Source: Candidatus Latescibacterota bacterium
Lineage (GTDB): Bacteria > Latescibacterota > UBA2968 > UBA8231
Assembly: GCA_964291625.2 (NCBI GenBank)
Contig: OZ220089.1
Location: 2,624,001-2,688,000, forward strand
Length of the DNA stretch: 64,000 nt
Direction of reading: 5' to 3'
Positions 8,411 through 58,000 of the stretch are shown one piece after another (the stretch's first letter is position 1; the number at the start of each line of letters is the position of its first letter). The notes below the pieces were generated by a model. The model had not been told where the DNA came from, made no database searches, and saw only the letters and a list, made by a program, of their open reading frames with translations. The position numbers were made by a program, and so were the translations under genes.

Positions 8411-9172
8411 CTACTCCCTGATCCGGAAAGCGATGGCCGCGTTGATCGCCTCGGTGGTTCCGCCTGAGGTGATGAAATCCTGAACCTCGGCGGCGTTGAC
8501 GATCTCGGTGCTGAAGTGGTCGTTGAAGATGAAGAAGTCTTCGAACCCGACGACACCGTCGCCATCCAGGTCGAAGACCGGGTCGAAGCCGTCGTCGCCT
8601 TCCCTCCGGCCGAGGTTCTCGTGGAGCAGAAAGAAGTCGTCCAGGCCGACTCTCGCTCCCACGTAGCTGAACCAGCCGAGGACCAGGTTGCCATCGGCAT
8701 CGCGGGGCAGCGGGGCCGGGGTGACGGTACGGGCCCGGTCGGCCTCGGACCCGGGCTCGATGACCAGCATGGCCTCGTTGTCGGCATCGTAGGCCCGGAC
8801 CTCGTAGACGTACACCCCGCCGCCCGCGGTGATGTCGCCGTCGGTGTACTCGGTGATGCCGGGCGGGGTGCTGCCGATCTTGGACGGCTCCGAACCGTCG
8901 ATGCTGCGATACACGCGGTATCCGTGGACGAGGTTGCGGTAAACGTGCTGGCCGCCGAAAGTCGATCCCACGGCGTTGTCGTCGTCCGACGCGGTCCAGG
9001 TCAGGAGGACGTTGTCCTCCGCGAAAACGGCGGTGAGGCCGGTGGCCGGCGCGGGCGGGATGTCGTCGATGGAGCGGACCAACCCGTCGCCCTGGCCGTC
9101 GGAACGGACGGGGCCGAAGCAAAGGATGGCGGCGCACAGGCCGACGGCGGTTCCCTTCTTGGCAGAGAGCAT
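8411..9172 (-). CDS. Secreted protein with fibronectin type III domain and C-terminal dockerin/EF-hand-like domain
   Basis: Signal peptide; FN3 pattern PPAPATGLTA..VLLTW..GYRVYRS..YTD..YVYEVRAYD; C-terminal FDLDGDGVVGFEDFFIF. Confidence 0.7.
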   Translation of the reverse strand: MLSAKKGTAVGLCAAILCFGPVRSDGQGDGLVRSIDDIPPAPATGLTAVFAEDNVLLTWTASDDDNAVGSTFGGQHVYRNLVHGYRVYRSIDGSEPSKIGSTPPGITEYTDGDITAGGGVYVYEVRAYDADNEAMLVIEPGSEADRARTVTPAPLPRDADGNLVLGWFSYVGARVGLDDFFLLHENLGRREGDDGFDPVFDLDGDGVVGFEDFFIFNDHFSTEIVNAAEVQDFITSGGTTEAINAAIAFRIRE

Positions 9173-9303
9173 ACGTTACCTCCGGAGGGTTGAGCAGGCC
9201 GCTTGTGACAGGCCGGCTAGCACCCTAACCGCTCCGGAGGGAGAAGTCAAGCGAAAAACGGGCCGCCGCGTCGGGGCAGCGGGCTCACGAAACGGGAGGA
9301 TCC

Positions 9304-9777
9304 ATGAACAGTCTCGCGGAGCGGGAGATCCCTCTGCTGGAGCAGACCCTCTCCCTGCGCACGCAGTTGCTGGACATCCTGGGCGACGCCGATCTCGCTC
9401 ACGCCCTGCCCGGCAACCCGTCTCTCGGCGCGCTGTGCCGCGAGGCGGGTCAGTTGGAGGAGATCTACACCGACTCCTTCCGGACCTTCACCGTGGACTG
9501 GAGAGAGCGGCCGGCGCCCGGGGGAGCGGCGAGGAGAGTGACGGTCCTGCGGGAGTGGTACGCCCGCTCGGACGCTGCCCTGAAGGAGGCCCTATGCGCC
9601 CTCAGCGAGGAGGATGTCCAGGGGAAGCGGATCGATCGCGGGGATTTCAGCGTGCCCGTGGGAGTGCAGTTTCACATCTACCGCGAGTCGATCCTGATCT
9701 TCTGCGGCAAGGCGAGCGTATACCTGCGCTCCCTCGGCGAGGACCTGCCCGAGCAGTGGCGGCAGTGGATCGGTTGA
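9304..9777 (+). CDS. Hypothetical protein, DinB/YfiT-like helical bundle
   Basis: RBS GGGAGG; pattern 'D.DL....pG..SLG.L' typical of DinB-like proteins. Confidence 0.55.
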   Translation: MNSLAEREIPLLEQTLSLRTQLLDILGDADLAHALPGNPSLGALCREAGQLEEIYTDSFRTFTVDWRERPAPGGAARRVTVLREWYARSDAALKEALCALSEEDVQGKRIDRGDFSVPVGVQFHIYRESILIFCGKASVYLRSLGEDLPEQWRQWIG

Positions 9778-9914
9778 TCCGGCCCATCGCCGGGGAGCGC
9801 CGCGCCGGTACGCTCCCCGCGCCTGGTGTTCCCCGTGCCGGGTTCTCGCCCGCGCCCCCCAACCACCCTATCCTTCCCTGACCCTGTCTCCGCCTGCCAA
9901 TCCCCGGAGGCCCC

Positions 9915-10367
9915 ATGCTCACAGCGTGGATCGTCGCGGGCGCGATCATGATCCTGCTGGAGTTGTTCCTGCCCGGAATGGTGCTCGGCTTTCTCGGGTC
10001 GAGCGCCCTGATCGTGGCCGCCCTCATCTGGCTGGGCTGGATCGACAGCCTGATCTCGGCCCTCACCACCTGGTTCATCCTCTCCCTCGTCCTGCTCCTG
10101 AGTCTGCGCGGCCTGTTCCTCCGCTTCGTCGGGGGCAGGTCCGAGCGCCAGTCCACCGACGAGGAGGAGGATGCCTACGGCACGGTCGTGGACGTGGTGG
10201 AGAGGATCTCACCGGACCGGGCGGGACGGATCCACTACCGGGACGCCACCTGGCAGGCGATCTGCCATGATCGCACCATCGAGGCCGGAGAGAAGGCGAT
10301 CCTCGCCTATCGCGAGAACCTCGCGTGGGTCGTCGAGCCCGCCGGGCTGGAGGAAAGCGATCCTTGA
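9915..10367 (+). CDS. NfeD family protein (short, OB-fold)
   Basis: ILLELFLPG TM hairpin, C-terminal GRIHYRDATWQA; directly upstream of SPFH genes. Confidence 0.85.
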   Translation: MLTAWIVAGAIMILLELFLPGMVLGFLGSSALIVAALIWLGWIDSLISALTTWFILSLVLLLSLRGLFLRFVGGRSERQSTDEEEDAYGTVVDVVERISPDRAGRIHYRDATWQAICHDRTIEAGEKAILAYRENLAWVVEPAGLEESDP

Positions 10368-10384
10368 AACGGGAGAGTTGAGCC

Positions 10385-11317
10385 ATGCCGCTTCTGACCT
10401 ACTTCACGATCCTGGTGCTGATCGCCCTGTTCGTGGTGCTCAAGACGTTCGTCGTCGTGCCCATGCGCGAGGCGGTCATCGTCGAGCGCCTGGGCAAGTT
10501 CCGGGCGGTCCTGCCGCCGGGGTTCCACTTCCTCATCCCCTTCTGCGACCGCATCGCCTACCGCCACGAGACCCGCGAGCAGGTGATCGACGTCCCCAGC
10601 CAGGCCTGCATCACCCGCGACAACATCCAGGTCGAGGTCGACGGTCTGGTCTACCTGCAGGTGCTCGACCCCGAGCGGGCCAGCTACGGCATCGAGGACT
10701 ACCGCCGCGCCAGCGTCAACCTGGCGCAGACGACGATGCGGGCCGAGATCGGCAAGCTGACCCTGGGCCAGTGCTTCTACGAGCGAGAGTCCCTGAACGA
10801 GACGATCGTGCAGGAGATCGACAAGGCGTCGAACCCCTGGGGCATCAAGGTGCTGCGCTACGAGCTGCGGAACATCACGCCCTCGGCCAACGTGGTGAAC
10901 ACCCTGGAGAAGCAGATGGAGGCGGAGCGCGAGAAGCGCGCCGAGATCACCCGCGCCGCCGCCGAGAAGGAGTCCACCATCAACCTCTCCGAGGGCGAGC
11001 GCCAGGAGGAGATCAACATCTCGGAGGGCGAGAAGCAGCGCCGGATCAACGTCGCCAAGGGCCGGGCGGAGGCGATCTCCATCATCGCCGAGGCCACCGC
11101 CGAGGGCACCGAGCGGATCGCCGCCGCGGTCCAGAAGGAAGGGGGGTCGGCGGCGCTGAAGATGCAGCTGGTGGAGGAGTACATCGAGATGATCAGCGAG
11201 ATCGCGGGAAAGTCCAACGTCTCCGTCGTGCCCCTGGAGCTGGCCCGGATCAAGGGCTTCTTCGAGGGGCTGGGCGAGGTCTCCGGTGGCACGCCGACCC
11301 AGAAGAAGGGAGCCTGA
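10385..11317 (+). CDS. SPFH/band 7 (stomatin-like, paraslipin) protein
   Basis: VERLGKF, PGFHFLIPF, ITRDN..VDG, LAQTTMR, WGIKVLRYE, coiled-coil AERxKRA. Confidence 0.92.
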   Translation: MPLLTYFTILVLIALFVVLKTFVVVPMREAVIVERLGKFRAVLPPGFHFLIPFCDRIAYRHETREQVIDVPSQACITRDNIQVEVDGLVYLQVLDPERASYGIEDYRRASVNLAQTTMRAEIGKLTLGQCFYERESLNETIVQEIDKASNPWGIKVLRYELRNITPSANVVNTLEKQMEAEREKRAEITRAAAEKESTINLSEGERQEEINISEGEKQRRINVAKGRAEAISIIAEATAEGTERIAAAVQKEGGSAALKMQLVEEYIEMISEIAGKSNVSVVPLELARIKGFFEGLGEVSGGTPTQKKGA

Positions 11318-11318
11318 C

Positions 11319-12248
11319 ATGTCGACCGTCTTCGAGATCTTCAACTTCACCGTCTGGGGCGTTCTGCTCCTGGTCCTGATCGTCATGTTCCTGCGCTCGA
11401 TCCGGCTGGTGCCGACCCAGTCGGCGTACGTCGTCGAGCGGCTCGGCCAGTACTCCAGGACGCTGAATCCCGGTTTTCACGCCCTGGTGCCCTTCATCGA
11501 AAGGGTGGCCTTCATCCGCGACCTCAAGGAGGAGACCGTGGACGTGCCGCCCCAGGAGTGCTTCACCCGGGACGAGGTCCAGGTCGAGGTGGACGGCGTC
11601 CTCTACATCTCGGTCACCGACCCGGTGAAGGCCAGCTACGGGGTGACCAACTACTCCTTCGCCGCCATGCAACTGGCGCAGACGACGACCCGCTCCGTCA
11701 TCGGCACCCTCGAGCTCGACCGCACCTTCGAGGAGCGCGACCTGATCTCGGCCAAGGTCGTGGAGGTGCTGGAGAGGTCGGGGGAGACCTGGGGGATCCG
11801 CGTCCACCGCTACGAGATCAAGAACCTGTCGCCGCCGCCGACGGTGAAGGACGCCATGGAGAAGCAGGTCACCGCCGAGCGCGACCGCCGCGCCATCGTG
11901 GCCCAGTCGGAGGGCGACAAGCAGAGCCGCATCAACACCTCGGAGGGCCGGCGCCTGGAGCTGATCAACCGCTCGGAGGGCGAGATGCAGCGCACCATCA
12001 ACGAGGCCCAGGGCCAGGCCGAGGAGGTCCGGGCCATCGCCCACGCGACGGCCGAGTCGATCGAGAAGATCGCGGCCTCGATCAGCGTCGCCGGCGGCGC
12101 CCAGTCGGTGCACCTGCAGCTGGCGGAGCGCTACCTGAAGAGGCTGCGTGCTCTGGCCGACGGCAAGACGGACGTGCTCCTGCCCGTGGACCTGGCCAAC
12201 CCTCAGCAGCTGCTGGACGCCATCGAGTTGCGCGGGCCTGACGGATAG
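11319..12248 (+). CDS. SPFH/band 7 (stomatin-like) protein, second paralog
   Basis: VERLGQY, PGFHALVPF, LAQTTTRSVIG, WGIRVHRYEI; ATG 1 bp after the previous stop. Confidence 0.92.
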   Translation: MSTVFEIFNFTVWGVLLLVLIVMFLRSIRLVPTQSAYVVERLGQYSRTLNPGFHALVPFIERVAFIRDLKEETVDVPPQECFTRDEVQVEVDGVLYISVTDPVKASYGVTNYSFAAMQLAQTTTRSVIGTLELDRTFEERDLISAKVVEVLERSGETWGIRVHRYEIKNLSPPPTVKDAMEKQVTAERDRRAIVAQSEGDKQSRINTSEGRRLELINRSEGEMQRTINEAQGQAEEVRAIAHATAESIEKIAASISVAGGAQSVHLQLAERYLKRLRALADGKTDVLLPVDLANPQQLLDAIELRGPDG

Positions 12249-12340
12249 CGCTGTCGGCCGCGGGGCCACGACTCGACACCACTCCCGCGGGCAGGGCGCC
12301 CCCGGCGGTCGGCGGGTGGGGAGCCGCCAGGGGCTGACGG

Positions 12341-15300
12341 TCACTGGTCGGAGAGTCCGACCAGCAGCCGCGAGTACTCGTCCTCCAGCGGATCGACCTC
12401 GCCCCGGAGGGCCGCCCGCGCGAAGACGATGCCCGGCCGCTCGACACGGCGGGCCCGGGCCAGCACGCCGAAACCCTCCGTCCCGGAGCCCCGCTGGCCC
12501 TCGCCGAGGGACTCGAACTCCGACAGGACGCGGAACAGGCCGCGCCGGGCGCCGACCACCCTGGCCAGCACCTCGGGCGCGGTGAGCCCCTCCCGCCAGG
12601 AGCGGCGGACCCCGAGGAGCCGGCCCTCGATGTCACGCACGAGTCCGCCCGGCCCCACCAGGGTCGTGAGCTGATGGACCGTGGCCCGGGCGCCGCTGTG
12701 ACACAGCAGGGCGGCGGCGCCAAGGTCGTCGTCGTCGTAGTCGCGGAAGCCGGCGATAGTCGCCAGGGCCTCCTCGGCGCAGGCCTGCCACTGCGGCGCG
12801 TCGTCCCCTTCCGGAAGGGCGGGCAGGTCGAGGGTGTGGCCGATGAAGGGGCCGATGGAGGCGCCTTCCCCGCGGGCGGCTTCGAACCCCAGCCGCATCA
12901 GTTCCGCGGCCACGCCCAGGGCCGCCCGCTCCCCCTCGGCGGCCAGCACCTCCCGCAGCAGCCTCGAGGCCGCCGCCCGCGTGAGGAGTCCGCCCTCGAG
13001 TTCCGGTTCCCGCCCCGCGGCCTCCGCGATCCTCTTCCGGCCCGCCGCCGAGCGGCCGAGGCAGGCGAGCCCGAAGAGGGCGTCCATGCCCGGCAGCAGG
13101 TCCTCCAGGAGATCGGGATCCCGGGCCAGGTGGGCGGCGATGGACAGCCGCTCGCGGGTCTCGCCCTGGGCCATCTCCGTGAGGGGGAGGAAGACGGCCG
13201 CCTGGTCGCCGTCGAAGTCGACGTCCAGCAGGCCGCAGGCCAGGGGGCAGAGGCGGATGGCATGGCCCGGGACCGGCAGGGGCCGGAAGGCCAGCATCGC
13301 CGTGGGGCTGACGGATGGAGCGTGATTGAGGATGATCCAGTGGGCCTCCATGGTGGCGGCGAGGGCGGCCCCGGCCTCGGAGAAGCGCCTGCTGACCGCT
13401 TCGGGATCCCCCAACTCGCGCGCCGCCAGCGGCCCGAAGAGGCTCCAGGCCATCTCCTCCGGCAGACCGATCCGGTCGGCCGCCAGGTCGCTTCCGGGGA
13501 CGATTACGGCGCGGCCGCTGAAGAGCACATTCTCATCCCGCCCCGGCTCCGGGGCCGGCGCCAGTCCGTCGTACAGGGCCGACACGGCGGCGGCCAGGTC
13601 GTCCCGGGCCGCGGCTGCCAGGGGCTCGGGAGCCTTATCCTTCAGCAGCCGCGCGAGCCGGGCGTTGGCGGCGGCGACCCCGGGATACCCGGCGGCCTCC
13701 TCCGCGTTGCAGACCTCGGACAGGGTCTCCCCCGGCAGCCACGGGTGGGGGACGCCGGCGGCCAGGGACAGCGTCGGCCCCGGGTGTGGTTCCAGCCGGA
13801 AGGCGACGCCCCCGGCGCCGGCTTCGGCGCGGATTCCGGCCTGCGCCAGCCCAGCCGCCAGGGCGGCGAAGGCGGGTGAGGGGGTGGTCGCCGGCTCGAC
13901 CGGTCCGGCGGCGGCCCTGCCGGCCAGGGAACCCGCGTCGCCGCGCCGGGTGGAGCAGGTGTTGGTCAGCTCCCGGATCACCGCGGGTGCGCCGGCCTCG
14001 GCCAAGGCCCGCACCTCCATCACCCCCAGGCGCTGGCCCCTGTCGTCCGGGTGGACGGCGGCCCTCAGCTTCGGGCGCGCGCGGTGCAGCGTGCAGCCCC
14101 AGTAGACCCATCCGGCCGTGGCCGGCCGCCGCAGGGGCGTGCCGCCGAGGGTCAGCCTGGTCATGCCGTCGGCGCGCAGGCCGCTGCCCCGAAGCAGGTC
14201 CCGCAGCTGCTCGTCCGAGGGCGCCTCGAAGGGCGGCACCACGGCGGGCTCCCCCCGCAGGAGGGCCGCGTGGCCGAGGGCGGCCTCCCGGACCAGCCCC
14301 ATGACCCAGCGGGACGGGATGCCCGAGAAGCTGAAGACCAGCTCCACGGGGGTGCCGTCCGGCAGCCGCGGCATCTCCTCGTCGGGCGCCACCCGCGACA
14401 CGACGCCCTTGACCCCGTGCCGGTTGCTGAGCTTGTCGCCGGCTTCGAGGGGGTCCGGGCAGGCGAGCTTGCGGGCGCCGGACCGGCTGACCAGCAAGGC
14501 GTCGTCGAAAGCGTCGCCGTCCCAGGAGACCAGGGCCGTGAGGAGGTTCCGGCCGCACCAGAAGTCCGGCGCCGTCGGCTCGAGGCCGGTCCGCACCAGG
14601 GCCGGCTCCCTCTCGGCGGGCGCCAGCCACTGGCGCATCATGTTGGCGCCCATGAGCACGCGGTTGCCGTCGTCGTTCTCGAGGAAGGGGACGCAGGCGC
14701 CGGAGATGCCCAGTCCCTCCGCGGGCTGCGCGTCGACGATCACCAGCCGGCGGCCTCGGATCTCCGCTCCCCGGGAAATCGTCAGGACGCGGCCGATGTT
14801 CGGTCCTTCCGGGGTCTCGAAGGGGCAGGTGCGGCCGAAGTGGGCCGGGGTGAACACCTCCTGGCGGCCGGGGACCAGGAGCCGGCGCAGGTGCGCGGCC
14901 CGGGACAGCCAGTTGGTGTCGTCGAGCCGCTCGCCGCAGGAGGCCAGGAAGGCCTGGAACCAGTCCCCCAGAGGCGCCAGGGTCCGCAGGAGGGACCCGT
15001 CGAGGGGGGTGTGCTCGGGGACCTGGCCCAGGCGGGCCTCGATGAAGGTGGAGAGCCGGTCGCCGAGACAGCCGATGCGCGCCTCGGCCAGGTCGTCGCG
15101 GTCGGCCACGGGAGGCACGACCAGCTCGACGCCGCCCGAGGGGTCGCGCTCCCCCCCGGGGATCGTCCTCGGAGGCGGCAGGCTGGGACTGGCCTCCGCC
15201 ACCCGGAAGACGCCCTCTTCGTCCGGCGCGGGCAGCCCGTCGTATTCGACCTCGAAGTCCCCCTCGACCGAGGGTCCGCCGAGGACGATCCGGCAGGCGT

Positions 15301-15427
15301 GCTCGCCGGCCCCTTCGGCGCGGTAGCTGCTCACCCCCAGCCGTGCGGCCAGCAGCTCGGGAAGGCGGCGGTGCAGGAAGTCGTCGAAGGAGGCCTTGTG
15401 CCACGGGTTGGCCGGCGTCGTTCTCAT
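12341..15427 (-). CDS. Miniature fused DNA-directed RNA polymerase beta-beta'-like protein (1028 aa)
   Basis: Colinear RpoB motifs (CPFETPEGPNIG; VPFLENDDGNRVLMGANMMRQ; GDKLSNRHGVKGVVS; GIPSR; GQRLGVMEV) followed by RpoC motifs (FSGRAVI..GLPEEMA; LNHAP; DVDFDGDQ; SGAR; REGL..GARRGL; RGEVDPL..LLVG). Confidence 0.93.
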   Translation of the reverse strand: MRTTPANPWHKASFDDFLHRRLPELLAARLGVSSYRAEGAGEHACRIVLGGPSVEGDFEVEYDGLPAPDEEGVFRVAEASPSLPPPRTIPGGERDPSGGVELVVPPVADRDDLAEARIGCLGDRLSTFIEARLGQVPEHTPLDGSLLRTLAPLGDWFQAFLASCGERLDDTNWLSRAAHLRRLLVPGRQEVFTPAHFGRTCPFETPEGPNIGRVLTISRGAEIRGRRLVIVDAQPAEGLGISGACVPFLENDDGNRVLMGANMMRQWLAPAEREPALVRTGLEPTAPDFWCGRNLLTALVSWDGDAFDDALLVSRSGARKLACPDPLEAGDKLSNRHGVKGVVSRVAPDEEMPRLPDGTPVELVFSFSGIPSRWVMGLVREAALGHAALLRGEPAVVPPFEAPSDEQLRDLLRGSGLRADGMTRLTLGGTPLRRPATAGWVYWGCTLHRARPKLRAAVHPDDRGQRLGVMEVRALAEAGAPAVIRELTNTCSTRRGDAGSLAGRAAAGPVEPATTPSPAFAALAAGLAQAGIRAEAGAGGVAFRLEPHPGPTLSLAAGVPHPWLPGETLSEVCNAEEAAGYPGVAAANARLARLLKDKAPEPLAAAARDDLAAAVSALYDGLAPAPEPGRDENVLFSGRAVIVPGSDLAADRIGLPEEMAWSLFGPLAARELGDPEAVSRRFSEAGAALAATMEAHWIILNHAPSVSPTAMLAFRPLPVPGHAIRLCPLACGLLDVDFDGDQAAVFLPLTEMAQGETRERLSIAAHLARDPDLLEDLLPGMDALFGLACLGRSAAGRKRIAEAAGREPELEGGLLTRAAASRLLREVLAAEGERAALGVAAELMRLGFEAARGEGASIGPFIGHTLDLPALPEGDDAPQWQACAEEALATIAGFRDYDDDDLGAAALLCHSGARATVHQLTTLVGPGGLVRDIEGRLLGVRRSWREGLTAPEVLARVVGARRGLFRVLSEFESLGEGQRGSGTEGFGVLARARRVERPGIVFARAALRGEVDPLEDEYSRLLVGLSDQ

Positions 15428-15428
15428 G

Positions 15429-16034
15429 TCAGTCTTCCTCCCAGTCGATCCCCAGCTCGCGCCAGGATCGAGCGATCTGTTTGCGGGCGTGGTGGATCCG
15501 GGACTTCACCGTGCCCTCGGGTATGCCCAGCTCCAAAGCGGCCTGGCGAGTGTTCATGTTGCCGTCGTAGATCAGCCGGATGACCTTGCGCCGGTCCTCC
15601 GGCAGGCGCGTCACCAGGCCGCGCAGCAGCCGCCGGCGCTCCGCCAGGGCCAGGACCTCGTCGGGCGGAAGGGTGGAGGCGTCGATCATCCATTCCGGCA
15701 CCCGCTCCTCCCTCCCCTCCTCTCCCTCCATGGCGGGGGGAGGCTGCAGCGGCTGCTCGTGACGGCGCCGGACCGAGCGGATGTGGTTGAGGGCCAGGTT
15801 CGTGGCGATGCGCAGCAGCCAGGCGAGCAGGGGGCCCTCGCCCTTCCACTGTCCGGCGCGGTGCCACAGACGGAGGAAGACCTCCTGACCGACGTCGGCG
15901 GCGTCCTCGTCATGGCGATGGATGCGCCGCAGGTGACGCTGCACATCGGCGCGGTAGCGCTCGAAGAGCTTGGCGAAGTCCTCCTGCCGCCCCTCGATCA
16001 CCCCGCGGACCAGCTCCTCGTCGCTCTTCCCCAT
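15429..16034 (-). CDS. ECF-subfamily sigma-70 factor
   Basis: SDEELV, region 2 DAADVGQEVFLRLW..WLLRIATN, region 4 LPEDRRKV..LGIPEGTVKSRIHHAR; RBS GGAGG. Confidence 0.93.
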   Translation of the reverse strand: MGKSDEELVRGVIEGRQEDFAKLFERYRADVQRHLRRIHRHDEDAADVGQEVFLRLWHRAGQWKGEGPLLAWLLRIATNLALNHIRSVRRRHEQPLQPPPAMEGEEGREERVPEWMIDASTLPPDEVLALAERRRLLRGLVTRLPEDRRKVIRLIYDGNMNTRQAALELGIPEGTVKSRIHHARKQIARSWRELGIDWEED

Positions 16035-16049
16035 CCGGCCTCCACCCGG

Positions 16050-16077
16050 TTGACACCGCCGGCGCCTGCCGGGTTCA
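16050..16077 (-). promoter_or_regulatory. Putative ECF-sigma (autoregulatory) promoter
   Basis: Minus strand TGAACC-16 nt-TGTCAA, ending 15 nt upstream of the sigma ATG; fits the AAC/GTC ECF consensus. Confidence 0.55.
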
Positions 16078-17421
16078 CCGGGCCGGGGGAGCCGGTTCCG
16101 CGATGCAGTAGAGGTGGTGTCGTCCCCGCAGATAGAGCTCGCCGCCGGCCAGGGCCGCCGAGGCGCTGAAGCTGTCGTCGAGGTGGTTGACGGCCAGGAC
16201 GGCGGGGGCGTCCGCGTGGCTGACGACCACGGTGGCGCCGTTGCGGCCGGTGACGTAGACGCGGCCGGCGGCGGCGACGGGAGAGGCGAAGACCCGGTCG
16301 AGGCCCTTCAACCGCATCGGCCCCGGCCGGTCCCCCCCGGTCCGGGCGTCGACGCGGGTGAGGATGTTCTGGAAGTGGCGGACGAAGTAGAGGGCGTCGC
16401 CGTAGAGCAGGAGGGAGGGGACGTACGGCGCCCCCCGGGTGCGGCTCCAGGCGGCCCGGCGGCTGCGGCTGTCCTCGCCCTCGGAGGGTTGGAGGGGAAT
16501 CGCCAGCACCGCCTGCCGGTCGTAGCTGCTCCCCGCGAAGACGAGGCCGAAGCCGGCCACCGGCGTGGCGACCACGTTCTCCACCGAGAGCCCCGGACAC
16601 TCCCAGATCCTGCGGCCGTCGGCGAGGTCGTAGCCGCGCACTCCCCCGGAGCCGCTGACCACGACCTGGGGCCGGCCGCCGGCCTCGGTGACGATGGGGG
16701 TGGTCCAGGACGAGGCCGGTGCGCGGGGGCTCTTCCAGCGGAGGGCGCCCGTCCCCTTGTCGAAGGCGGCGAGGAAGGACTCCCCCTCGTGGTCCCAATT
16801 GACGATCAGAGCCCCGCCGGCGACCGCCGGCGAGCTGCCTTCGCCGTGGCCGTGGAGCGGCTCCAGGGGGCCGAGGTCCAACTCCCACAGCAGCTCCCCA
16901 TCGAGATCGAGGCCGTAGATCCCGTGGGAGCCGAAGGAGGCGACCAGGTGCTCGCCGTCGGTCACCGCCGAGGCGGAGGCCAGGCTCGCCGTGTAGTGGC
17001 CGCCGGCGCGGGGCAGGGCCTCGCGCACCACCCGCTGCCAGAGGACCTGTCCCGTGCGGCGGTCCAGGGCGAGGACGACGAACCGGTGGCGGTGAGTGAC
17101 CGGCCGTTCGTCGTGGCTGCCCGGCAGGCCGCTGAGCTTCGGACGCAGAGGTTCGCCGTAGGGGACGGCGGCGGTGATGAAGATCCGGTCGCCCCAGACC
17201 ACCGGCGTCGAGTGGCCGCCGCCGGGAAGCGCCGCCTTCCAGCGCAGGTTGCGGGTCTCGCTCCACTCGAGCGGTGGATCGGCGTGGGGTGCGGCGCCGG
17301 TGCCCAGGGGGCCGCGCCAGGCGGGCCAGAAGCGGTCCCCATCGGTCTCCGGCTCGCCGGAGGCCGCGGTCAGCAGGCAGCAGACCACCGCGAGGGCCGC
17401 GGATGGGCCCATGCGGACCAT
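16075..17421 (-). CDS. PQQ-binding-like beta-propeller repeat protein (BamB-like), secreted
   Basis: Signal peptide, WPAWRGP..G, WSETRNLRWK..LPG.GHSTPVVWGDRIF, repeated SSP / W..G motifs. Confidence 0.88.
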   Translation of the reverse strand: MVRMGPSAALAVVCCLLTAASGEPETDGDRFWPAWRGPLGTGAAPHADPPLEWSETRNLRWKAALPGGGHSTPVVWGDRIFITAAVPYGEPLRPKLSGLPGSHDERPVTHRHRFVVLALDRRTGQVLWQRVVREALPRAGGHYTASLASASAVTDGEHLVASFGSHGIYGLDLDGELLWELDLGPLEPLHGHGEGSSPAVAGGALIVNWDHEGESFLAAFDKGTGALRWKSPRAPASSWTTPIVTEAGGRPQVVVSGSGGVRGYDLADGRRIWECPGLSVENVVATPVAGFGLVFAGSSYDRQAVLAIPLQPSEGEDSRSRRAAWSRTRGAPYVPSLLLYGDALYFVRHFQNILTRVDARTGGDRPGPMRLKGLDRVFASPVAAAGRVYVTGRNGATVVVSHADAPAVLAVNHLDDSFSASAALAGGELYLRGRHHLYCIAEPAPPAR

Positions 17422-17423
17422 TC

Positions 17424-19520
17424 TCAGACCACGGGGGGCGGGTCCGCTCTCCGTGCGGGCTCGGGATCGGCCAGGCGCAACAGGTCCCGCCGGGCGGAGG
17501 ACTGCGCCACCCGCACCCGCAGGACCTGGCCGGGCGCGGCCTGCAGCCGCTGCCCCCGGGGGGCGGGGACGTGGCACGCCACCGGGCCCTCGGGCAGCAG
17601 GACCAGGTGGCCGGGCCCGCGCGGCTCGGCGACCACGCACTGCAGCCGCGCCTTGTCCCCAAGGCTTTCGAGCCATTTGAGCGTCCAGTAGCGGCGGCTG
17701 CAGCGGCGCACGCGCTCCGCCGTCTCCCGGGCCTCGCGCGTCTCCAGCAGGATGCGCTCCAGGTCCTCTGCCGTCAGGGGGTCGGAGCGCCGGCCCGCGA
17801 TCCACAGCAGCTGCCGCTGCATGGCCAGGTCGACGTAGCTCGACAGGGGGCCGGCGCCCGGAGCGCAGGCCGGAAGTCCGAGACCCGCGTGGGGGGCGGG
17901 GGACGTCCCGAGCCTCTCGCGCGGGGTCCCGCTCTCGTGCAGATGGGTGCGGAGGACCTCGGCCGACGTGGAGTCGGCGGCGAGGGGGACGCCGGACTCG
18001 GCGGGCGGGGCCTCGCGCACCGCGTGGATCGCGGGCGCCGCGTCGCGGCAGAGGCGGGCGATCGCTTCGGCGGCCAGCAGGCCCAGCTCCGAGTCGACGC
18101 GATCCTCAACCCCCTCCGCCGCCGGCTCCGCCCGTCCTTGACGGACCGCGATCCGGTCGGCGGGATGCAGTTGCTGCCAGGCCCCCGCCCGCCGCCGCCT
18201 CTGCCGCCGCCCCTCGGCCAGCGCCGCCAGGCGGCGCACCGGGGCGCTGCCCTCGCCGGCCGCGAGCGCCGCACGGGGCCGGGCGCGGCCCAGGGACAGC
18301 CGCACCTTCTGCGGCGCCAGCTCCCGGTCCAGGCGCACGCTCAGGATCAGGACGGGTCGGGCCTCGTCCGCCGTCAGCCGGCAGGCGTCGGTCAGATCCG
18401 GCGGCAGCATCGGGATCTCCCGCTCCAGCAGGCGCACGCTGAGTCCCCGGGCGGCGGCTTCCTGATCGATGGCGCCGCCGTCCTCCACCCACAGGGCCGG
18501 CACGGCCATGTGGATGTCGACGACGGTGTGGCCGAGCAGGCTCCGGCGGAGACGGTAGGCCCGCTGGCCGCAGCGGGTGACGCAGAGGCCCGCGCCCCAG
18601 CGTCGGCGGCCTGCCCACCCAGCGAGGACGGCCGAGGGGTCGAGGCCGCGCGCCGCTCTCTTCGCCGCCTCGGAGAATGCCACGGGCAGGCCGAGGCGGT
18701 GCAGCTCCAGGTTCTCGTCGGCGGACCAGTGACCCAGGCGGACGAGGACGTCGAAGGCGGCGTGGCTTCCGTGCAGGTTGGCAGCCTTCATCAGCCGGGC
18801 GGCCTCCGCGCTCGCCTCGCCCAGGGCGGCGGCCTCGAGCAGGTCCACCGCCGAGTCCGCCCCGACGGGACGGGGGCTGGATGGGTGCCCGTCGGCGACC
18901 CTTCGGACCCACGAGGCCAGCTCGGTCTGGCGGCCTTCCTCCCTCTCCTCGCGGGCCGAGGATGCCTCGATCCCCTCTACCGCCGCCGGGGAGCGGGGGC
19001 GCCAGCGGGCGCCGTGGCGCTCGAACCGGTGGCCGCGCCACAGGGCCCGGAGCATGCCGGCCCGGCGGCTGGCGTTCGGATCGCCGGGGTCGTGGAGCTC
19101 GACCAGATCGTCGAGCCGCCACTCGCCGCCCTCCGGGCCCCCCTCGAGAGCGACCTGCCAGAGGGCCGTGAGATCGACGGCGCCGCGGGCCTGCTCGCGC
19201 CTCCGGTCGATGCGGCGGAGGTCGGCCAGCGCCATCTCGGGGGTGTGCATCGACACGTACTCCGGGGATACGTCCACCACCTTGTCGCGGCGGAGGTGGA
19301 GCCGGCGGCCGTCGACGCCGACGACGTCGTAGCCCCTGCGGTTCTGCGGATCCCGGGCGAGGTAGCCGCACTGAAGCTGGCCGCCGCGGCGGAACTCGAG
19401 CACCGCGCCGGCGCGCTCGAGAGCGGGCTTCGCGCCGCGTTCGGCCTGCACCAGGCGCGCCACCTCCCGGCGGGAGGCGTCGTCGAGGGAGTTGGTCAGA
19501 TGTCGCGGCCAGCGGACCAT
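17424..19520 (-). CDS. RNB (RNase II/R)-family protein with degenerate catalytic motifs and S1-like C-terminus
   Basis: LLEREIPMLPP.L, PAPHAGLGL..GPLSSYVDLAMQRQL (cf. H.GL....TSPIRRY.DL..HR), RRYWTLKWL; the catalytic acidic D-x(7,8)-DD stretch is not visible. Confidence 0.7.
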   Translation of the reverse strand: MVRWPRHLTNSLDDASRREVARLVQAERGAKPALERAGAVLEFRRGGQLQCGYLARDPQNRRGYDVVGVDGRRLHLRRDKVVDVSPEYVSMHTPEMALADLRRIDRRREQARGAVDLTALWQVALEGGPEGGEWRLDDLVELHDPGDPNASRRAGMLRALWRGHRFERHGARWRPRSPAAVEGIEASSAREEREEGRQTELASWVRRVADGHPSSPRPVGADSAVDLLEAAALGEASAEAARLMKAANLHGSHAAFDVLVRLGHWSADENLELHRLGLPVAFSEAAKRAARGLDPSAVLAGWAGRRRWGAGLCVTRCGQRAYRLRRSLLGHTVVDIHMAVPALWVEDGGAIDQEAAARGLSVRLLEREIPMLPPDLTDACRLTADEARPVLILSVRLDRELAPQKVRLSLGRARPRAALAAGEGSAPVRRLAALAEGRRQRRRRAGAWQQLHPADRIAVRQGRAEPAAEGVEDRVDSELGLLAAEAIARLCRDAAPAIHAVREAPPAESGVPLAADSTSAEVLRTHLHESGTPRERLGTSPAPHAGLGLPACAPGAGPLSSYVDLAMQRQLLWIAGRRSDPLTAEDLERILLETREARETAERVRRCSRRYWTLKWLESLGDKARLQCVVAEPRGPGHLVLLPEGPVACHVPAPRGQRLQAAPGQVLRVRVAQSSARRDLLRLADPEPARRADPPPVV

Positions 19521-19528
19521 GGTCCCTG

Positions 19529-19580
19529 AGGGTATCCTCTCCACTTCGACAGTGTCAACCGCAATCCGAGGGCCTATAAT
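19529..19580. promoter_or_regulatory. Divergent sigma70-like promoter region
   Basis: Minus strand: TTGACA (19558-19553)-18 nt-TACCCT (19534-19529), 8 nt before ATG 19520. Plus strand: perfect TATAAT at 19575-19580, 14 nt before ATG 19595. Confidence 0.45.
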
Positions 19581-19594
19581 CTGCGGCGGCCGTC

Positions 19595-20176
19595 ATGGTT
19601 TCCCGCGCATCCACATCCCGTCCCCCGCCTCCGGCGCTGCGCCGGTTCTTCGGGGCCATGGTGCGCCCCTGCTTCGCCAGCCTCGGACTCGGCGCGGGGG
19701 AGCTGGCCGACTACGTCACCGACCTGCTCGCCCGTTTTTCGCGCACCGACCAGCTCTACCGGGTCCGCGACAGCCGCGGACGGCCCCTGCACACCCTCAC
19801 CGACCTGCTGCTGGAGCTGATGGAGGAGTGGGGATCCGACCGGGCCTGGTCCTTCGACCGGGAGGTCGACCTGCGCCGCCACTGCGGCGACTACGCCCTC
19901 TTTCTGTCCGGCGTCTTCCGCCCCCACGTCGAGGCCGGCGGACACCTCTCCTACTACCTGAGGGAAGGGGGCGAGAGCTACCGGCTCGTGGGCGAGCACC
20001 TGCAGCTGGCGGGCGCCCGCCAGGCCCGCCTCTTCCGGGGCATGGCCGACCGCTTCGAGGAGCTGTCGGGGACCCTCGACTACCTGCGCAAGGTGCACAT
20101 GGCGCCGGCCCTGCACGGGCATCCGTACGGCGCCGCCCTCCGCGGCTTCGAGGTGGACGGCGCCGGAGAGTCCTGA
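19595..20176 (+). CDS. Conserved hypothetical protein
   Basis: Host-like codon usage; motifs YVTDLLARF, RRHCGDYALFLSGVF, YYLREG..SY resemble a widespread uncharacterised helical family. Confidence 0.65.
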   Translation: MVSRASTSRPPPPALRRFFGAMVRPCFASLGLGAGELADYVTDLLARFSRTDQLYRVRDSRGRPLHTLTDLLLELMEEWGSDRAWSFDREVDLRRHCGDYALFLSGVFRPHVEAGGHLSYYLREGGESYRLVGEHLQLAGARQARLFRGMADRFEELSGTLDYLRKVHMAPALHGHPYGAALRGFEVDGAGES

Positions 20177-55289: not shown

Positions 55290-56903
55290 ATGCAGATTTC
55301 ATATGCCATTGAGAACATCAGGCGCCTGAGCCGTGTTCCTGAAATCGAAATGCGGCCAATTACAATTCTGGTCGGCAGGAACAGTGCCGGGAAGAGTACC
55401 TTTCTGCGGTCACTTCCGCTCATCCGTCAGTCGTTGGAGACTCGTAGCAGCGCACCAATACTCTGGTTTGGTGACCTAGTGGATTTTGGCGATCCAACTA
55501 CCGCAATCGGGGAAGGAAAGGAAGTAAAGCAAGCTGCCTTTAGCTTCTCGGTCAGTGGAATACAGGAGAGATACTTCCCGAGGTACTATGACCACACCGG
55601 ATACTATACCGTGCCCGAATCGGTTGAAGTGCGACGGGTTTGGATTCGGTATGTAATTGGCACACGGGGAGATGAGACCGTATTGGAGAGCATACAGATC
55701 AGGATCCCGGACGAGAAGATAGACGTTTCGTTTGACATTGGTAGTCAGGAAGAGTCCTTTGGGCAGATTAGAATCAACGGGGTGCCCGCAGACTTCCTTA
55801 CCGAAGGGTATGAGGTCAGGACGATGGACCGCAGCCTCTTTGCGCCACCCATAGTCACCGTCAAGACAGTGGAAAAGGAGGGCAAGTCCAGAAGGGTGCC
55901 GAGGAGGCAGAATGTGCTTGCTGAGGCGCTAGCAGATGTCTTCCGACGCCAGACCACAAGGCACCTTAGTGACGCCAGATTTCAGCATGAAGTGCGGAGA
56001 GTACTGTCGAAGAGCCCTTTTGATGACCAGAGAATCGAGAGGTTGATGCAAACCTCGGGTACAGCAACCTTTCGGGAGATCTACCAGCGGCTGTTGTCGG
56101 ATGAAGAGAGTGATTTCGTAACAGAGGTATTCTCAATTCAACGTCTCTCAAGGGTGTGTGTGGTATTGGATGTCCTAGGGGATAGACTATCGGAGTACTT
56201 CCTCAACGTGGGTTACTTGGGCCCTGTTAGGGCTGCCAGCGAGCGCTACTACCGAAGGCAGGAGTTGGAGGTCTCAGAGATAGCTCCAAACGGCTCCAAC
56301 TTTCCCATGTTCCTGGCATCGTTGACACGGCCGGAACTAGAGAGTTTTTCCCGTTGGGTCGAAGGCATTTTCAGTTACGGGGTTCGGGTTCGACGAACTA
56401 GCGGGCACATTAGCATCGAGTTAGTTTCGCAGGGGAGGTCTGTGAATGTGACAGACACAGGCTATGGCGTCTCCCAGATATTGCCAGTGCTCGGAATGTT
56501 GTGGTGGGCGGTTAACCATCCGCCGCGTACTACCCACTGGCGGCGACCTAGAAGGGTAGGGGTACGCACCCTTGCGATCGAGCAGCCGGAGTTGCACCTA
56601 CATCCTGCGCATCAGGCCAAGCTGGCGGATGTGTTTGCATCCACAGTCGGGAACTCCGATGGCAGGTCAAGCTCGGCGCGCAGACTCGGAATTAGACTGG
56701 TTGTCGAGACCCACAGTGAGGCTCTAATCAACCGGCTGGGCGAGCTCGTAGAGGAAGGGAAAGTAGACGCGGGTGCCATCCAGATCGTGGTCTTCTCGGC
56801 TGATGAGGATTTGGCCTCCGCGACTAAGGTATCACTATCCAGATTTGATGATAGCGGAGCCCTAAGTGACTGGCCGTATGGATTCTTCAAGTACTCAGAG
56901 TGA
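55290..56903 (+). CDS. ABC/AAA_21-type ATPase with DUF3696-like C-terminus (defence-associated)
   Basis: Walker A GRNSAGKS, signature TGYGVSQILP, Walker B/D-loop IEQPELHLHP, H-loop VETHSE, C-terminal G.LSDWPYGFF; low GC. Confidence 0.88.
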   Translation: MQISYAIENIRRLSRVPEIEMRPITILVGRNSAGKSTFLRSLPLIRQSLETRSSAPILWFGDLVDFGDPTTAIGEGKEVKQAAFSFSVSGIQERYFPRYYDHTGYYTVPESVEVRRVWIRYVIGTRGDETVLESIQIRIPDEKIDVSFDIGSQEESFGQIRINGVPADFLTEGYEVRTMDRSLFAPPIVTVKTVEKEGKSRRVPRRQNVLAEALADVFRRQTTRHLSDARFQHEVRRVLSKSPFDDQRIERLMQTSGTATFREIYQRLLSDEESDFVTEVFSIQRLSRVCVVLDVLGDRLSEYFLNVGYLGPVRAASERYYRRQELEVSEIAPNGSNFPMFLASLTRPELESFSRWVEGIFSYGVRVRRTSGHISIELVSQGRSVNVTDTGYGVSQILPVLGMLWWAVNHPPRTTHWRRPRRVGVRTLAIEQPELHLHPAHQAKLADVFASTVGNSDGRSSSARRLGIRLVVETHSEALINRLGELVEEGKVDAGAIQIVVFSADEDLASATKVSLSRFDDSGALSDWPYGFFKYSE

Positions 56904-58000
56904 TGATCTACCAACTGGACTGCACTAGGGAAGAACTGGCCAGTGCGAGCCGGGATGAGTTGGAAGATGTCTTTTCGAGACTGGTTGATGCGGATCGGGC
57001 AGGGCGGCACTTCTTTATTGTGAGAAGAGATCTGTGTGAATGGGCAAGGAGGAACCTCAGACTCTCTAGATTGGATAGTGCTCGGCTAGCGACTATCAAG
57101 GAAGAGTACGCGATACGGGGGGCTCTTCTGGAAGACAGTCATGTCTGTGTCAAGGTGAGAATAGGCAATTCGGGGGTTAGGTGTGATAGAGGGTTAGGGT
57201 TCTCGATTGGCCATGAGTGCCTAGTCTCCGGGGAGTACTTATTGGTGAGTGCCGGATTTGTCGTTGAGGATTTGACATCAGACGGAAAGGTGTATGACCA
57301 GATATTGAGGGAAGCATTGAAGGTCTCGAAGGTGCCGTCATATAGGGTTGAATTCATACATGGAGGGGGTTCTCAGGTTGGGGAGATCTTTGAGGCGGAG
57401 ATTGGGAAGGGCAGGGTGGTGGTGTGTGTTGTTGATCATGACCGATTGGCGCCTATGGATAGTAAGTCAGCGGGCGCTCGGCAGATACTGCTCATTCAGA
57501 CTCAAAGGAATGAGAGCCCTGGTGGTGGCCGAGGGAGTTTCATAGGGTTGGGGACCACCACTGTTGGGCGAGAGGTAGAGAACCACATTCCGTATCATCT
57601 CATAAAGGGAATGTGGGACATGAACTATCGCCACTTCGCTGAACTCGACAGAATCGTCGCTCAAGTGGGTTGCGTGCGGAAGGAGGATTGCTTTTGGCAG
57701 TATTTCGACATCAAGGAAGGCCTCTGTGGGGAAGAACTGATGAAGTTGCTGGGTGGGGAAAAGATTTCACAAGATGTGATCGAGTGGATCTGTGGTAGAG
57801 TCGGATGTGATATTGAGGAGTTGGCGAGTGTTCAGATTGATGGATTCGGAGATAGGGTGGTGAAACTCTTTCTAGGGAGTCCGCAGGCACTGGCGGGGTT
57901 TCACGAATTTGTGCGGTCTGAGTACTGGCAGTCTATGTACGCGGGATTCTACGAGAGGCTTCTGTGGTTCTGCGCTGCTCCACGCGCAGTTCGAACATAA
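56900..58000 (+). CDS. Putative OLD-type TOPRIM nuclease domain protein
   Basis: VVEDLTSD..Y, HGGGS, VVDHD (DxD), REVENHIP; overlaps the ATPase stop; low GC. Confidence 0.65.
   Translation: MMIYQLDCTREELASASRDELEDVFSRLVDADRAGRHFFIVRRDLCEWARRNLRLSRLDSARLATIKEEYAIRGALLEDSHVCVKVRIGNSGVRCDRGLGFSIGHECLVSGEYLLVSAGFVVEDLTSDGKVYDQILREALKVSKVPSYRVEFIHGGGSQVGEIFEAEIGKGRVVVCVVDHDRLAPMDSKSAGARQILLIQTQRNESPGGGRGSFIGLGTTTVGREVENHIPYHLIKGMWDMNYRHFAELDRIVAQVGCVRKEDCFWQYFDIKEGLCGEELMKLLGGEKISQDVIEWICGRVGCDIEELASVQIDGFGDRVVKLFLGSPQALAGFHEFVRSEYWQSMYAGFYERLLWFCAAPRAVRT

Follow-up and report, generated by a model that had tools for sequence, protein, structure and literature searches.

The 64,000-nt stretch of contig OZ220089.1 from a Candidatus Latescibacterota bacterium analyzed here (the window, to whose positions all coordinates below refer) carries, on its minus strand at 12341–15427, a gene for a single-chain mini RNA polymerase of 1028 aa. 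Pfam and NCBIfam matches, a structural model and alignments to the host's own subunits describe it as a fusion of a pruned β part, located N-terminally, and a pruned β′ part, located C-terminally. Upstream, on the same strand, lies the gene of a dedicated extracytoplasmic function (ECF) sigma factor of 201 aa (15429–16034), preceded in turn by an ECF-type promoter; these three parts form a fixed module. A previous, sequence-only reading of this DNA had dealt with positions 12341–13330, a range in which the residues it named are correctly placed, but which covers just the final third of the polymerase gene. Judged from the sequences collected here, what stands out is the family to which this polymerase belongs and its coupling to the sigma factor and promoter, with the change of two ribose-contacting residues to His and Asp appearing as a clade-level variant.

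Architecture and spread of the mini polymerase

The host's own β and β′ subunits, taken from the same assembly, served as the reference for alignments, and the mini polymerase aligns collinearly to both. On the β side, residues 140–223, 231–283, 288–320 and 321–492 correspond to four blocks of the host subunit (449–542, 614–666, 758–790 and 1038–1225, respectively). Host β residues 1–448, which make up the lobes, are missing and a 139-aa N-terminal domain is found in their place, and the flap (host β 791–1037) is deleted ahead of the β barrel. On the β′ side, the N-terminal clamp (host residues 1–263) is gone, and the clamp helices, a switch-2-like segment, the catalytic barrel and the bridge helix are kept. 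A similarity (Atlas) search with residues 1–165 gave, as a lead, viral clusters with Rpb2_1/Rpb2_2 (score 0.91–0.92, 130–146 shared features).

Pfam places a β fork domain, a β barrel and a β′ barrel within this one chain, all of them, like the gene itself, on the minus strand. The fork region (residues 168–222, 14762–14926) carries the motif ETPEGPNIG and matches RNA_pol_Rpb2_3 at 6.3e-08. The β double-psi barrel (residues 327–443, 14099–14449), with GDKLSNRHGVKG, matches RNA_pol_Rpb2_6 at 8.1e-26, and the β′ double-psi barrel (residues 695–759, 13151–13345), which holds both altered residues, matches RNA_pol_Rpb1_2 at 7.1e-16. With Rpb2_6 in the first barrel and both Rpb1_2 and a DxDxD motif in the second, the protein has the features that define the two-barrel superfamily; the metal ligands, D737/D739/D741 (13205–13219), are indeed present, as the sequence-only reading had held. 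In the basic block of the first barrel (GDK..RHG.KG), K332, R336 and G338 are invariant, and H337 and K340 are at least 90% conserved among 73 family sequences. The equivalent of the clamp helices (coiled coil) spans residues 581–622 (13562–13687, minus strand); it is recovered by the alignment of residues 581–758 to host β′ 264–476 (BLASTP, E 7e-27) and modelled as helices 581–596 and 601–622. In the family alignment, N588, R590 and R593 of this segment are at least 90% conserved, and P600 and L603 are invariant.

The NCBIfam rpoB and rpoC models match the chain piecewise, with 154.7 bits against a cut-off of 801 for rpoB and 99.1 bits against 963.5 for rpoC (TIGR02386). The AlphaFold2 model, built on 73 relatives, has a pLDDT of 91.4 and a pTM of 0.88. 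All 48 matches listed by Foldseek from the PDB (ranks 1–50, with two gaps) are β/β′ of bacterial or plastid polymerases or their close relatives, with a best E of 6.1e-23 and a query TM-score of at most 0.41; no solved structure of the compact mini form is among these 48 matches.

The bridge helix (residues 950–975, 12503–12580, minus strand) contains GARRGL (959–964, 12536–12553) and is seen both as a model helix and in the alignment of residues 902–964 to host β′ 690–761 (E 7e-4). The sequence-only reading had counted about 65 residues after GARRGL and had seen no trigger-loop motif there, and both points are borne out. Exactly 64 residues are left, the host trigger-loop motif IGEPGTQLTLRTFH (about residues 897–912) has no counterpart in the mini polymerase, and the roughly 530 residues of host β′ 762–1291 are replaced by 36 residues (965–1000). 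The AlphaFold2 model shows helix 950–975, a low-confidence loop (976–987) and three short helices, with no trigger-helix hairpin. Since the tail that follows the bridge-helix motif (G959) is 63–86 aa long in 77 of 77 diverse family sequences, the absence of the trigger loop is, as far as these sequences tell, a trait of the whole family. We considered the loop 976–987 as a replacement for the trigger loop; about 24 residues separate GL from VL in most members, their sequence is unconserved, and the idea was dropped.

The residues after GARRGL had been likened to β′ region H. This comparison holds insofar as the very end of the protein (residues 988–1028, 12344–12466, minus strand) is conserved and collinear with the end of region H (R991, A992, P998, G999, A1005, E1010, D1012, L1014 and G1024 are invariant or near-invariant in the family alignment), although the match of residues 1001–1024 to host β′ 1292–1315 is itself weak (E 2.9).

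Overall, the mini polymerase is a fusion of the catalytic cores of bacterial β and β′ that has lost the β lobes, the flap, the β′ N-terminal clamp, the trigger loop and all that lies between the bridge helix and the end of region H. Like canonical rpoB/rpoC products, including natural full-length fusions (NCBIfam NF011417, NF007172), it keeps the order of the double-psi barrels, and it likewise has the fork, the GDK..RHG.KG barrel, the clamp helices, a switch-2-like FSGRAVI, DFDGD, the bridge helix and the region-H end, while its partner is a sigma-70-family (ECF) factor with a typical −35/−10 promoter. Unlike the canonical enzyme, in which approximately 2600 aa are involved, it is one chain of 1028 aa without the equivalents of host β 1–448 and 791–1037 and of host β′ 1–263 and 762–1291, the last of which includes the trigger loop.

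Out of 1.84 billion representatives, a profile search gave approximately 75 clusters (50% identity) with full-length representatives ahead of the first fragments and canonical enzymes. Among the 120 matches listed, homologs are mostly ~1000–1090 aa long, with a few shorter partials; nearly all are unnamed or "hypothetical", and their source names include Gemmatimonadota, Hydrogenedentes, Armatimonadetes and Chloroflexota. In the window's phylum, the gene occurs in 65 of 168 genomes (19 of the 52 high-quality ones), and 5 of the 10 genomes of the window's genus carry it, the window's own genome counted. No family member was found on 72,556 plasmid or 50,697 phage records, where canonical rpoB/rpoC gave the sole matches, and no defence model of PADLOC-DB 2.0 matched the polymerase or the sigma factor at E ≤ 0.01. 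A search of the literature, covering the main text of PMC7826278 and having supplements and subscription journals outside its reach, gave no description of the family. We thus regard it, from these sequences, as a family of widespread single-chain mini RNA polymerases of ~1000 aa, apparently undescribed in the literature searched. Several runs carrying the label sponge metagenome, two RNA libraries among them (X2, X22, X3), contain contigs 95–99% identical to positions 9000–19600, so close relatives of the window's organism live in sponge-associated communities.

The sigma factor and its promoter

The sigma factor matches Sigma70_r2 (2.1e-14) and Sigma70_r4_2 (9.1e-14) and scores 92.9 bits with TIGR02937, against a cutoff of 42.9; having regions 2 and 4 only, and lying above the superfamily cut-off, it belongs to the ECF (group IV) factors. 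Its stop codon ends 1 nt before the polymerase start codon, and a GGAGGA ribosome-binding site for the latter lies inside the last codons of the sigma gene. One contig from an RNA library covers 15123–16185, a stretch that contigs of a DNA run cover too.

Conservation of this arrangement was followed in 21 loci, namely the window and 20 larger loci chosen from 64 other matching genomes. All 21 have a sigma ortholog (E ≤ 1e-49) on the same strand ahead of the polymerase gene, next to it in 15 and at a distance of 1.3–2.3 kb in the other six. In a set of 30 shorter loci, eight had no visible sigma gene; six of these genomes were taken again as 20-kb loci, and each has a sigma gene 1.3–2.3 kb upstream. 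The six loci with such an insert are L122, L124, L125, L126, L127 and L131. In L122, L124 and L125, the insert is a fused ABC exporter (ABC_membrane and ABC_tran), while a 414-aa open reading frame (ORF) in the L127 insert has no Pfam match. Beyond the sigma gene, no conservation of the neighbourhood was found across the 21 loci. The linkage extends to a distant subgroup of 10 metagenome contigs (GC 54–70%), in eight of which the sigma gene is directly upstream; the remaining two contigs extend 1 and 267 nt upstream.

The promoter consists of a −35 element TGAACC (16072–16077) and, 13 nt downstream, a −10 element CGGTGTC (16052–16058), both on the minus strand and recognized by motif conservation and matrix score; the GGAGG ribosome-binding site of the sigma gene (16039–16043) comes after the −10 element. 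The pattern TGAACC-N13-CGGTGTC precedes the sigma gene by ~50 nt in all 21 loci, one of which has a spacer shorter by one base, and −35 positions 5–9 are invariant in 15 non-redundant sites. With a matrix made from these 15 sites (which themselves score 24.8–29.4 bits), the window site reaches 24.8 bits, and the next best site in the 5.9-Mb genome 18.6 bits. The exact pattern occurs once in the window's genome, and in the genomes G000, G037, G042 and G081 it matches at the module only. Two extra exact matches in G010 lie inside a TPR/PMT_2 coding frame, and single exact matches occur in G103 and G105, genomes without the mini gene. The uniqueness of the window site suggests that the strict form of the promoter serves just the mini-polymerase operon, while weaker sites (13–18.6 bits) may widen the regulon. 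In all, the ECF-type promoter, the dedicated ECF sigma gene and the polymerase gene constitute a fixed three-part module.

Some further details of the module deserve comment. The −35 element overlaps the stop codon of the upstream PQQ/BamB-like β-propeller gene (16075–17805, minus strand), in that the stop codon at 16075–16077 is formed by the first three bases of TGAACC. In a DNA-run contig from a related strain (X3, 95–99% identical), a 14-nt insertion behind 16067, within the promoter spacer, brings a minus-strand repeat of the −35 hexamer. The linker that joins regions 2 and 4 of the sigma factor (residues 112–118, 15681–15701, minus strand) carries a V-P-G/E-W-M-I-D motif (VPGWMID) behind an acidic run; among 18 orthologs, P113, W115 and D125 are invariant and D118 is at least 90% conserved. 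Such a motif might be a contact specific to the mini polymerase or a part of the holoenzyme arrangement.

Ribose-contacting positions and the fate of the module in the genus

Where the host β′ subunit reads NRAPTLH...NADFDGD, the mini polymerase reads NHAPSVS...DVDFDGD. This pair of differences had been pointed out in the sequence-only reading, together with an ungapped alignment and a 33-residue spacing, and direct reading of the DNA and the alignment to host β′ confirm each of these points. His702 is encoded by cac (13322–13324), preceded by Asn701 (aat), and Asp735 by gac (13223–13225), the first codon of DVDFDGD (13205–13225); 33 residues lead from His702 to Asp735, and the alignment between the two motifs has no gap. 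Having neither the Arg of NRAPTLH nor the Asn of NADFDGD, the mini polymerase is unlike canonical β′ at both sites.

In E. coli, these residues are R425 and N458, termed universally conserved in PMC7862312, which is also our source for the ribose-contacting roles of Arg425, Asn458 and the trigger loop. The same paper describes Arg425 as the main selector against 2′-deoxynucleoside triphosphates (2′-dNTPs): R425K lowers selectivity both at the binding step (17-fold) and at the incorporation step (25-fold), processive synthesis is strongly impaired in R425L, and N458S loses ~4-fold in selectivity.

Across the family, the picture is different. A first set of 73 sequences has Arg (65), His (7) or Thr (1) at position 702, and Asn (49), Asp (17), Gln (5) or Glu (2) at position 735. 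In a later set of 140 rows of at least 900 aa, merged from both alignments after dropping 8 shorter rows, the counts include 121 Arg and 9 His at position 702, and 88 Asn, 35 Asp, 8 Gln and 6 Glu at position 735. The sequence-only reading had set its proposal against the case that homologs keep R and N, and largely they do. Its statement that all ribose-selecting elements are changed is true of the window protein, in which all three differ, but not of the family, where Arg and Asn are the norm. His702/Asp735 is, on these alignments, a clade-specific variant: the five sequences that make up the window's close clade (at least 80% identity) all have both residues, and the pair is limited to this clade of the window's genus and a few other lineages.

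Replacements of Arg at position 702 include His, Lys and others, with His the commonest. On the FastTree tree, His requires at least five changes, and eight of the nine His rows have an acidic residue (Asp or Glu) at 735; His is apparently a recurrent, tolerated replacement of Arg. An acidic residue at 735 also stands beside Arg in 27 of 140 rows (23 R/D, 4 R/E). We looked for a coupling of Arg loss to an acidic 735 and found no statistical support for it, as 11–12 independent pairs gave a median p of 0.625, and the five pairs available for His alone gave p = 0.25. The metal triad is intact in 137 of the 140 rows. Three representatives of the family, P0171, P0173 and P0205, have a degenerate triad (DFDGN, GFSAQ and GFGGL, respectively), also lack Arg at 702 and may be inactivated or non-catalytic members.

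Of the 323 positions that are at least 85% conserved in the other 68 sequences, 23 differ in the window's clade. Five of these changes (S696H, R702H, V717L, H727C and A736V) fall within residues 690–745, where they affect 5 of 23 conserved positions, against 18 of 300 elsewhere (Fisher p = 0.017, for a segment chosen after the data had been seen). Within the genus, the ratio of nonsynonymous to synonymous substitution rates (dN/dS) is 0.35–0.38 for the polymerase and 0.33 for the sigma factor, versus 0.11–0.20 in three Arg-bearing genera. However, five neighbour genes compared over the same genome pairs give 0.16–0.58, so the polymerase value is unexceptional for this genus. The reading frame is intact in five of five clade members, and the window copy of the module is, by these sequence measures, intact and under purifying selection.

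One congener, the 95%-complete genome G167, documents a loss of the module. At its syntenic locus L136 (G167:C1:3852000-3862000), the segment equivalent to window 12244–15799 is missing, that is, the polymerase and the 3′ two-thirds of the sigma gene, while the promoter is kept and so is the 5′ end of the sigma gene. A 97-nt piece of the polymerase 3′ end (window 12374–12470) is found displaced at L136 5144–5234. The genus can therefore do without the module, which at least one of its members has lost.

Two other features of the window may be mentioned here. An RNase II/R-like gene (RNB and HTH_RNase_II; 17424–19544, minus strand) overlaps the β-propeller ORF named above by ~380 nt as listed; the propeller ORF probably begins further downstream than its listed start. 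On the plus strand, 55290–58000 is a low-GC island (GC 0.53 at 56–58 kb versus ~0.70 elsewhere), which encodes an AAA_15/AAA_21 ATPase and a 366-aa partner matching the PADLOC candidate defence pair PDC-M55A (3.5e-39) and PDC-M55B (1.1e-4); no Rfam family or tandem repeat was found in 55290–58000.

Possible roles of the mini polymerase

Two known enzymes help to place the mini polymerase. YonO of the Bacillus prophage SPβ is, according to PMC5467207, a single chain of ~100 kDa with two barrels, a catalytic Asp triad and no trigger-loop homology; it is described there as being as efficient as the multisubunit enzyme, with a strong preference for nucleoside triphosphates (NTPs), no RNA cleavage and lower accuracy. 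Compared by function and architecture, YonO is a minimal one-chain two-barrel enzyme without a trigger loop, as the mini polymerase would be. Its homology to the multisubunit enzyme is very distant in that account, whereas the mini family gives Pfam matches of 1e-16 to 1e-26, and, unlike the prophage-borne YonO, the mini family is chromosomal and tied to a sigma factor. The second is the archaeal DNA polymerase PolD, for whose DP2 subunit PMC7708050 reports an invariant PHT selectivity motif, with the His as a steric gate facing the sugar. DP2 and the mini clade share a two-barrel active site, the absence of the Arg of RxPxLH and a His in this loop. However, the PolD His lies one residue after Pro (PHT), while the mini His occupies the Arg position, two residues before Pro, and NHAPSVS contains no PHT; the rest of the mini polymerase, unlike PolD, is plainly derived from β/β′.

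The explanation to which we lean, with restrained confidence, is that of a sigma-linked module whose effector is an active, NTP-using mini polymerase in which His and Asp are tolerated. The host core together with the dedicated sigma factor would fire the single promoter, in the manner of positive autoregulation by ECF factors, and thus yield both proteins. The mini enzyme would then act as a catalytically active polymerase without a trigger loop, using NTPs and probably binding the same sigma factor with the clamp helices it has kept. If YonO is a guide, the mini enzyme would be devoid of intrinsic cleavage and proofreading and hence less accurate. The triad kept in 137 of 140 rows, the basic residues of the first barrel and the dN/dS of the clade support catalytic competence. 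His702/Asp735 would be a tolerated, possibly compensated form of the ribose pocket, perhaps one that discriminates less against 2′-deoxy substrates. On the strength of the YonO, E. coli Arg425 and PolD papers cited above, the family is expected to consist of NTP-using RNA polymerases, while the His/Asp clade probably discriminates sugars less well. The sequence-only reading had gone further: the changed ribose-selecting elements, the missing trigger loop among them, suggested to it an altered chemistry (dNTP use, slow or terminal nucleotidyl transfer, primer synthesis, RNA hydrolysis) in place of ordinary processive transcription. YonO, efficient and NTP-preferring without trigger-loop homology, speaks against deducing slow, dNTP-using or non-processive chemistry from a missing trigger loop.

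The β′ clamp coiled coil is the main dock for sigma region 2, and a prediction of the complex between the sigma factor and residues 1–799 of the mini polymerase gave an ipSAE of 0.48 (runs 0.48, 0.49 and 0.33), against 0.00 for the best control. The runs share at least 48% of their contacts, with a partner pLDDT of at least 64. When this score was calibrated on 80 solved complexes and 110 mismatched pairs, 58 and 2 of them, respectively, came up to the mark, and the range up to 0.60 held only 7 of the 80 together with both mismatches; the prediction thus lends the complex weak support.

Several points weigh against the explanation we favour. The predicted complex may echo its likeness to solved structures, sigma and β′ being a textbook pair. 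The flap tip, which anchors sigma region 4, is deleted, so the placement of a two-domain ECF sigma factor is unexplained, and a holoenzyme would need a new arrangement. If the sigma factor directs the mini enzyme, its motif leaves the enzyme's own operon as the single target in this genome; either weaker target sites exist or the mini enzyme acts without sigma. Contigs of 95–99% identity from two metatranscriptome runs span the whole 10.6-kb stretch, but those of a DNA run cover it just as evenly, so the RNA contigs are no evidence of transcription. The three members without a metal triad indicate that catalysis is not indispensable family-wide, and the loss of the Arg425 equivalent could matter more than we assume.

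The substitutions may, on the other hand, reflect lineage-specific drift, with constraint weakened, the module heading to loss and His/Asp neutral or slightly deleterious. We hold this to be unlikely, though several facts would suit it: five of the ten genomes of the genus lack the gene, G167 has lost the polymerase and most of the sigma gene, dN/dS is raised relative to the Arg-bearing genera, and 23 otherwise conserved positions have changed in the clade. Yet the neighbour genes make a value of 0.35 unexceptional, all five frames are intact and keep the triad and the β-side basic residues together with the same His702 and Asp735, and His recurs in other lineages. Such recurrence, in at least five origins and nearly always with Asp or Glu at 735, would also fit a ribose pocket remodelled for other chemistry, such as dNTP or mixed incorporation, short primer-like products or terminal transfer. 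The clustering of changes in 690–745, though the segment was picked post hoc, points the same way, as do the defects of E. coli R425K, R425L and N458S (PMC7862312) and PolD, the sole two-barrel DNA polymerase, which according to PMC7708050 has no RxPxLH Arg and uses a His of the same loop as a steric gate. Altered chemistry of the His/Asp enzyme is possible, and altered sugar selectivity in the window's clade is a reasonable hypothesis, given that E. coli relies mainly on Arg425 for this selectivity. As an explanation of the module, however, a remodelled pocket seems to us rather improbable. Arg with Asn is the family norm, Asp735 is frequent beside Arg too and so is not bound to His, the independent test comprises just five pairs, the His is placed differently from that of PolD and the PHT motif is missing, YonO is strongly NTP-selective without a trigger loop, and an acidic 735 could equally bind the ribose diol.

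A third alternative dispenses with catalysis. The mini polymerase stands where an anti-sigma factor is usually encoded, 1 nt downstream of an ECF sigma gene and with no recognizable anti-sigma gene between, and it might be a core-enzyme mimic that sequesters the sigma factor through its clamp helices. The retention of these helices, a sigma promoter that appears to serve the mini-polymerase operon alone, the three members without a triad and the weak complex prediction would all suit such a regulator. We nevertheless find it hard to credit, given that the triad is intact in 137 of 140 members, that the β-side NTP-binding residues are invariant or nearly so, and that a two-barrel core of 1000 aa with a bridge helix far exceeds the needs of a sigma sink. 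It is also tempting to suppose that the sigma factor and the mini polymerase form a self-contained holoenzyme which, in the lineages with Arg replaced by His and an acidic 735, has ceased to discriminate against 2′-deoxy substrates and makes DNA or mixed DNA/RNA chains from the promoter. This we consider very improbable; if true, RNA polymerase would have an offshoot that synthesises DNA under the direction of a sigma factor, much as PolD arose from an RNA polymerase with two barrels.

In the accepted view, a cellular RNA polymerase cannot do without its trigger loop and a core of five subunits (~400 kDa). If the explanation we favour is correct, the mini chain of 110 kDa would be the smallest sigma-programmable polymerase known. 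It would also be a natural test of which polymerase parts are dispensable, and the family's variants at the Arg425 position would test the gate mechanism described in E. coli in an enzyme that has no trigger loop. Should the sigma factor, polymerase and promoter work as an orthogonal set, they would provide a compact expression tool.

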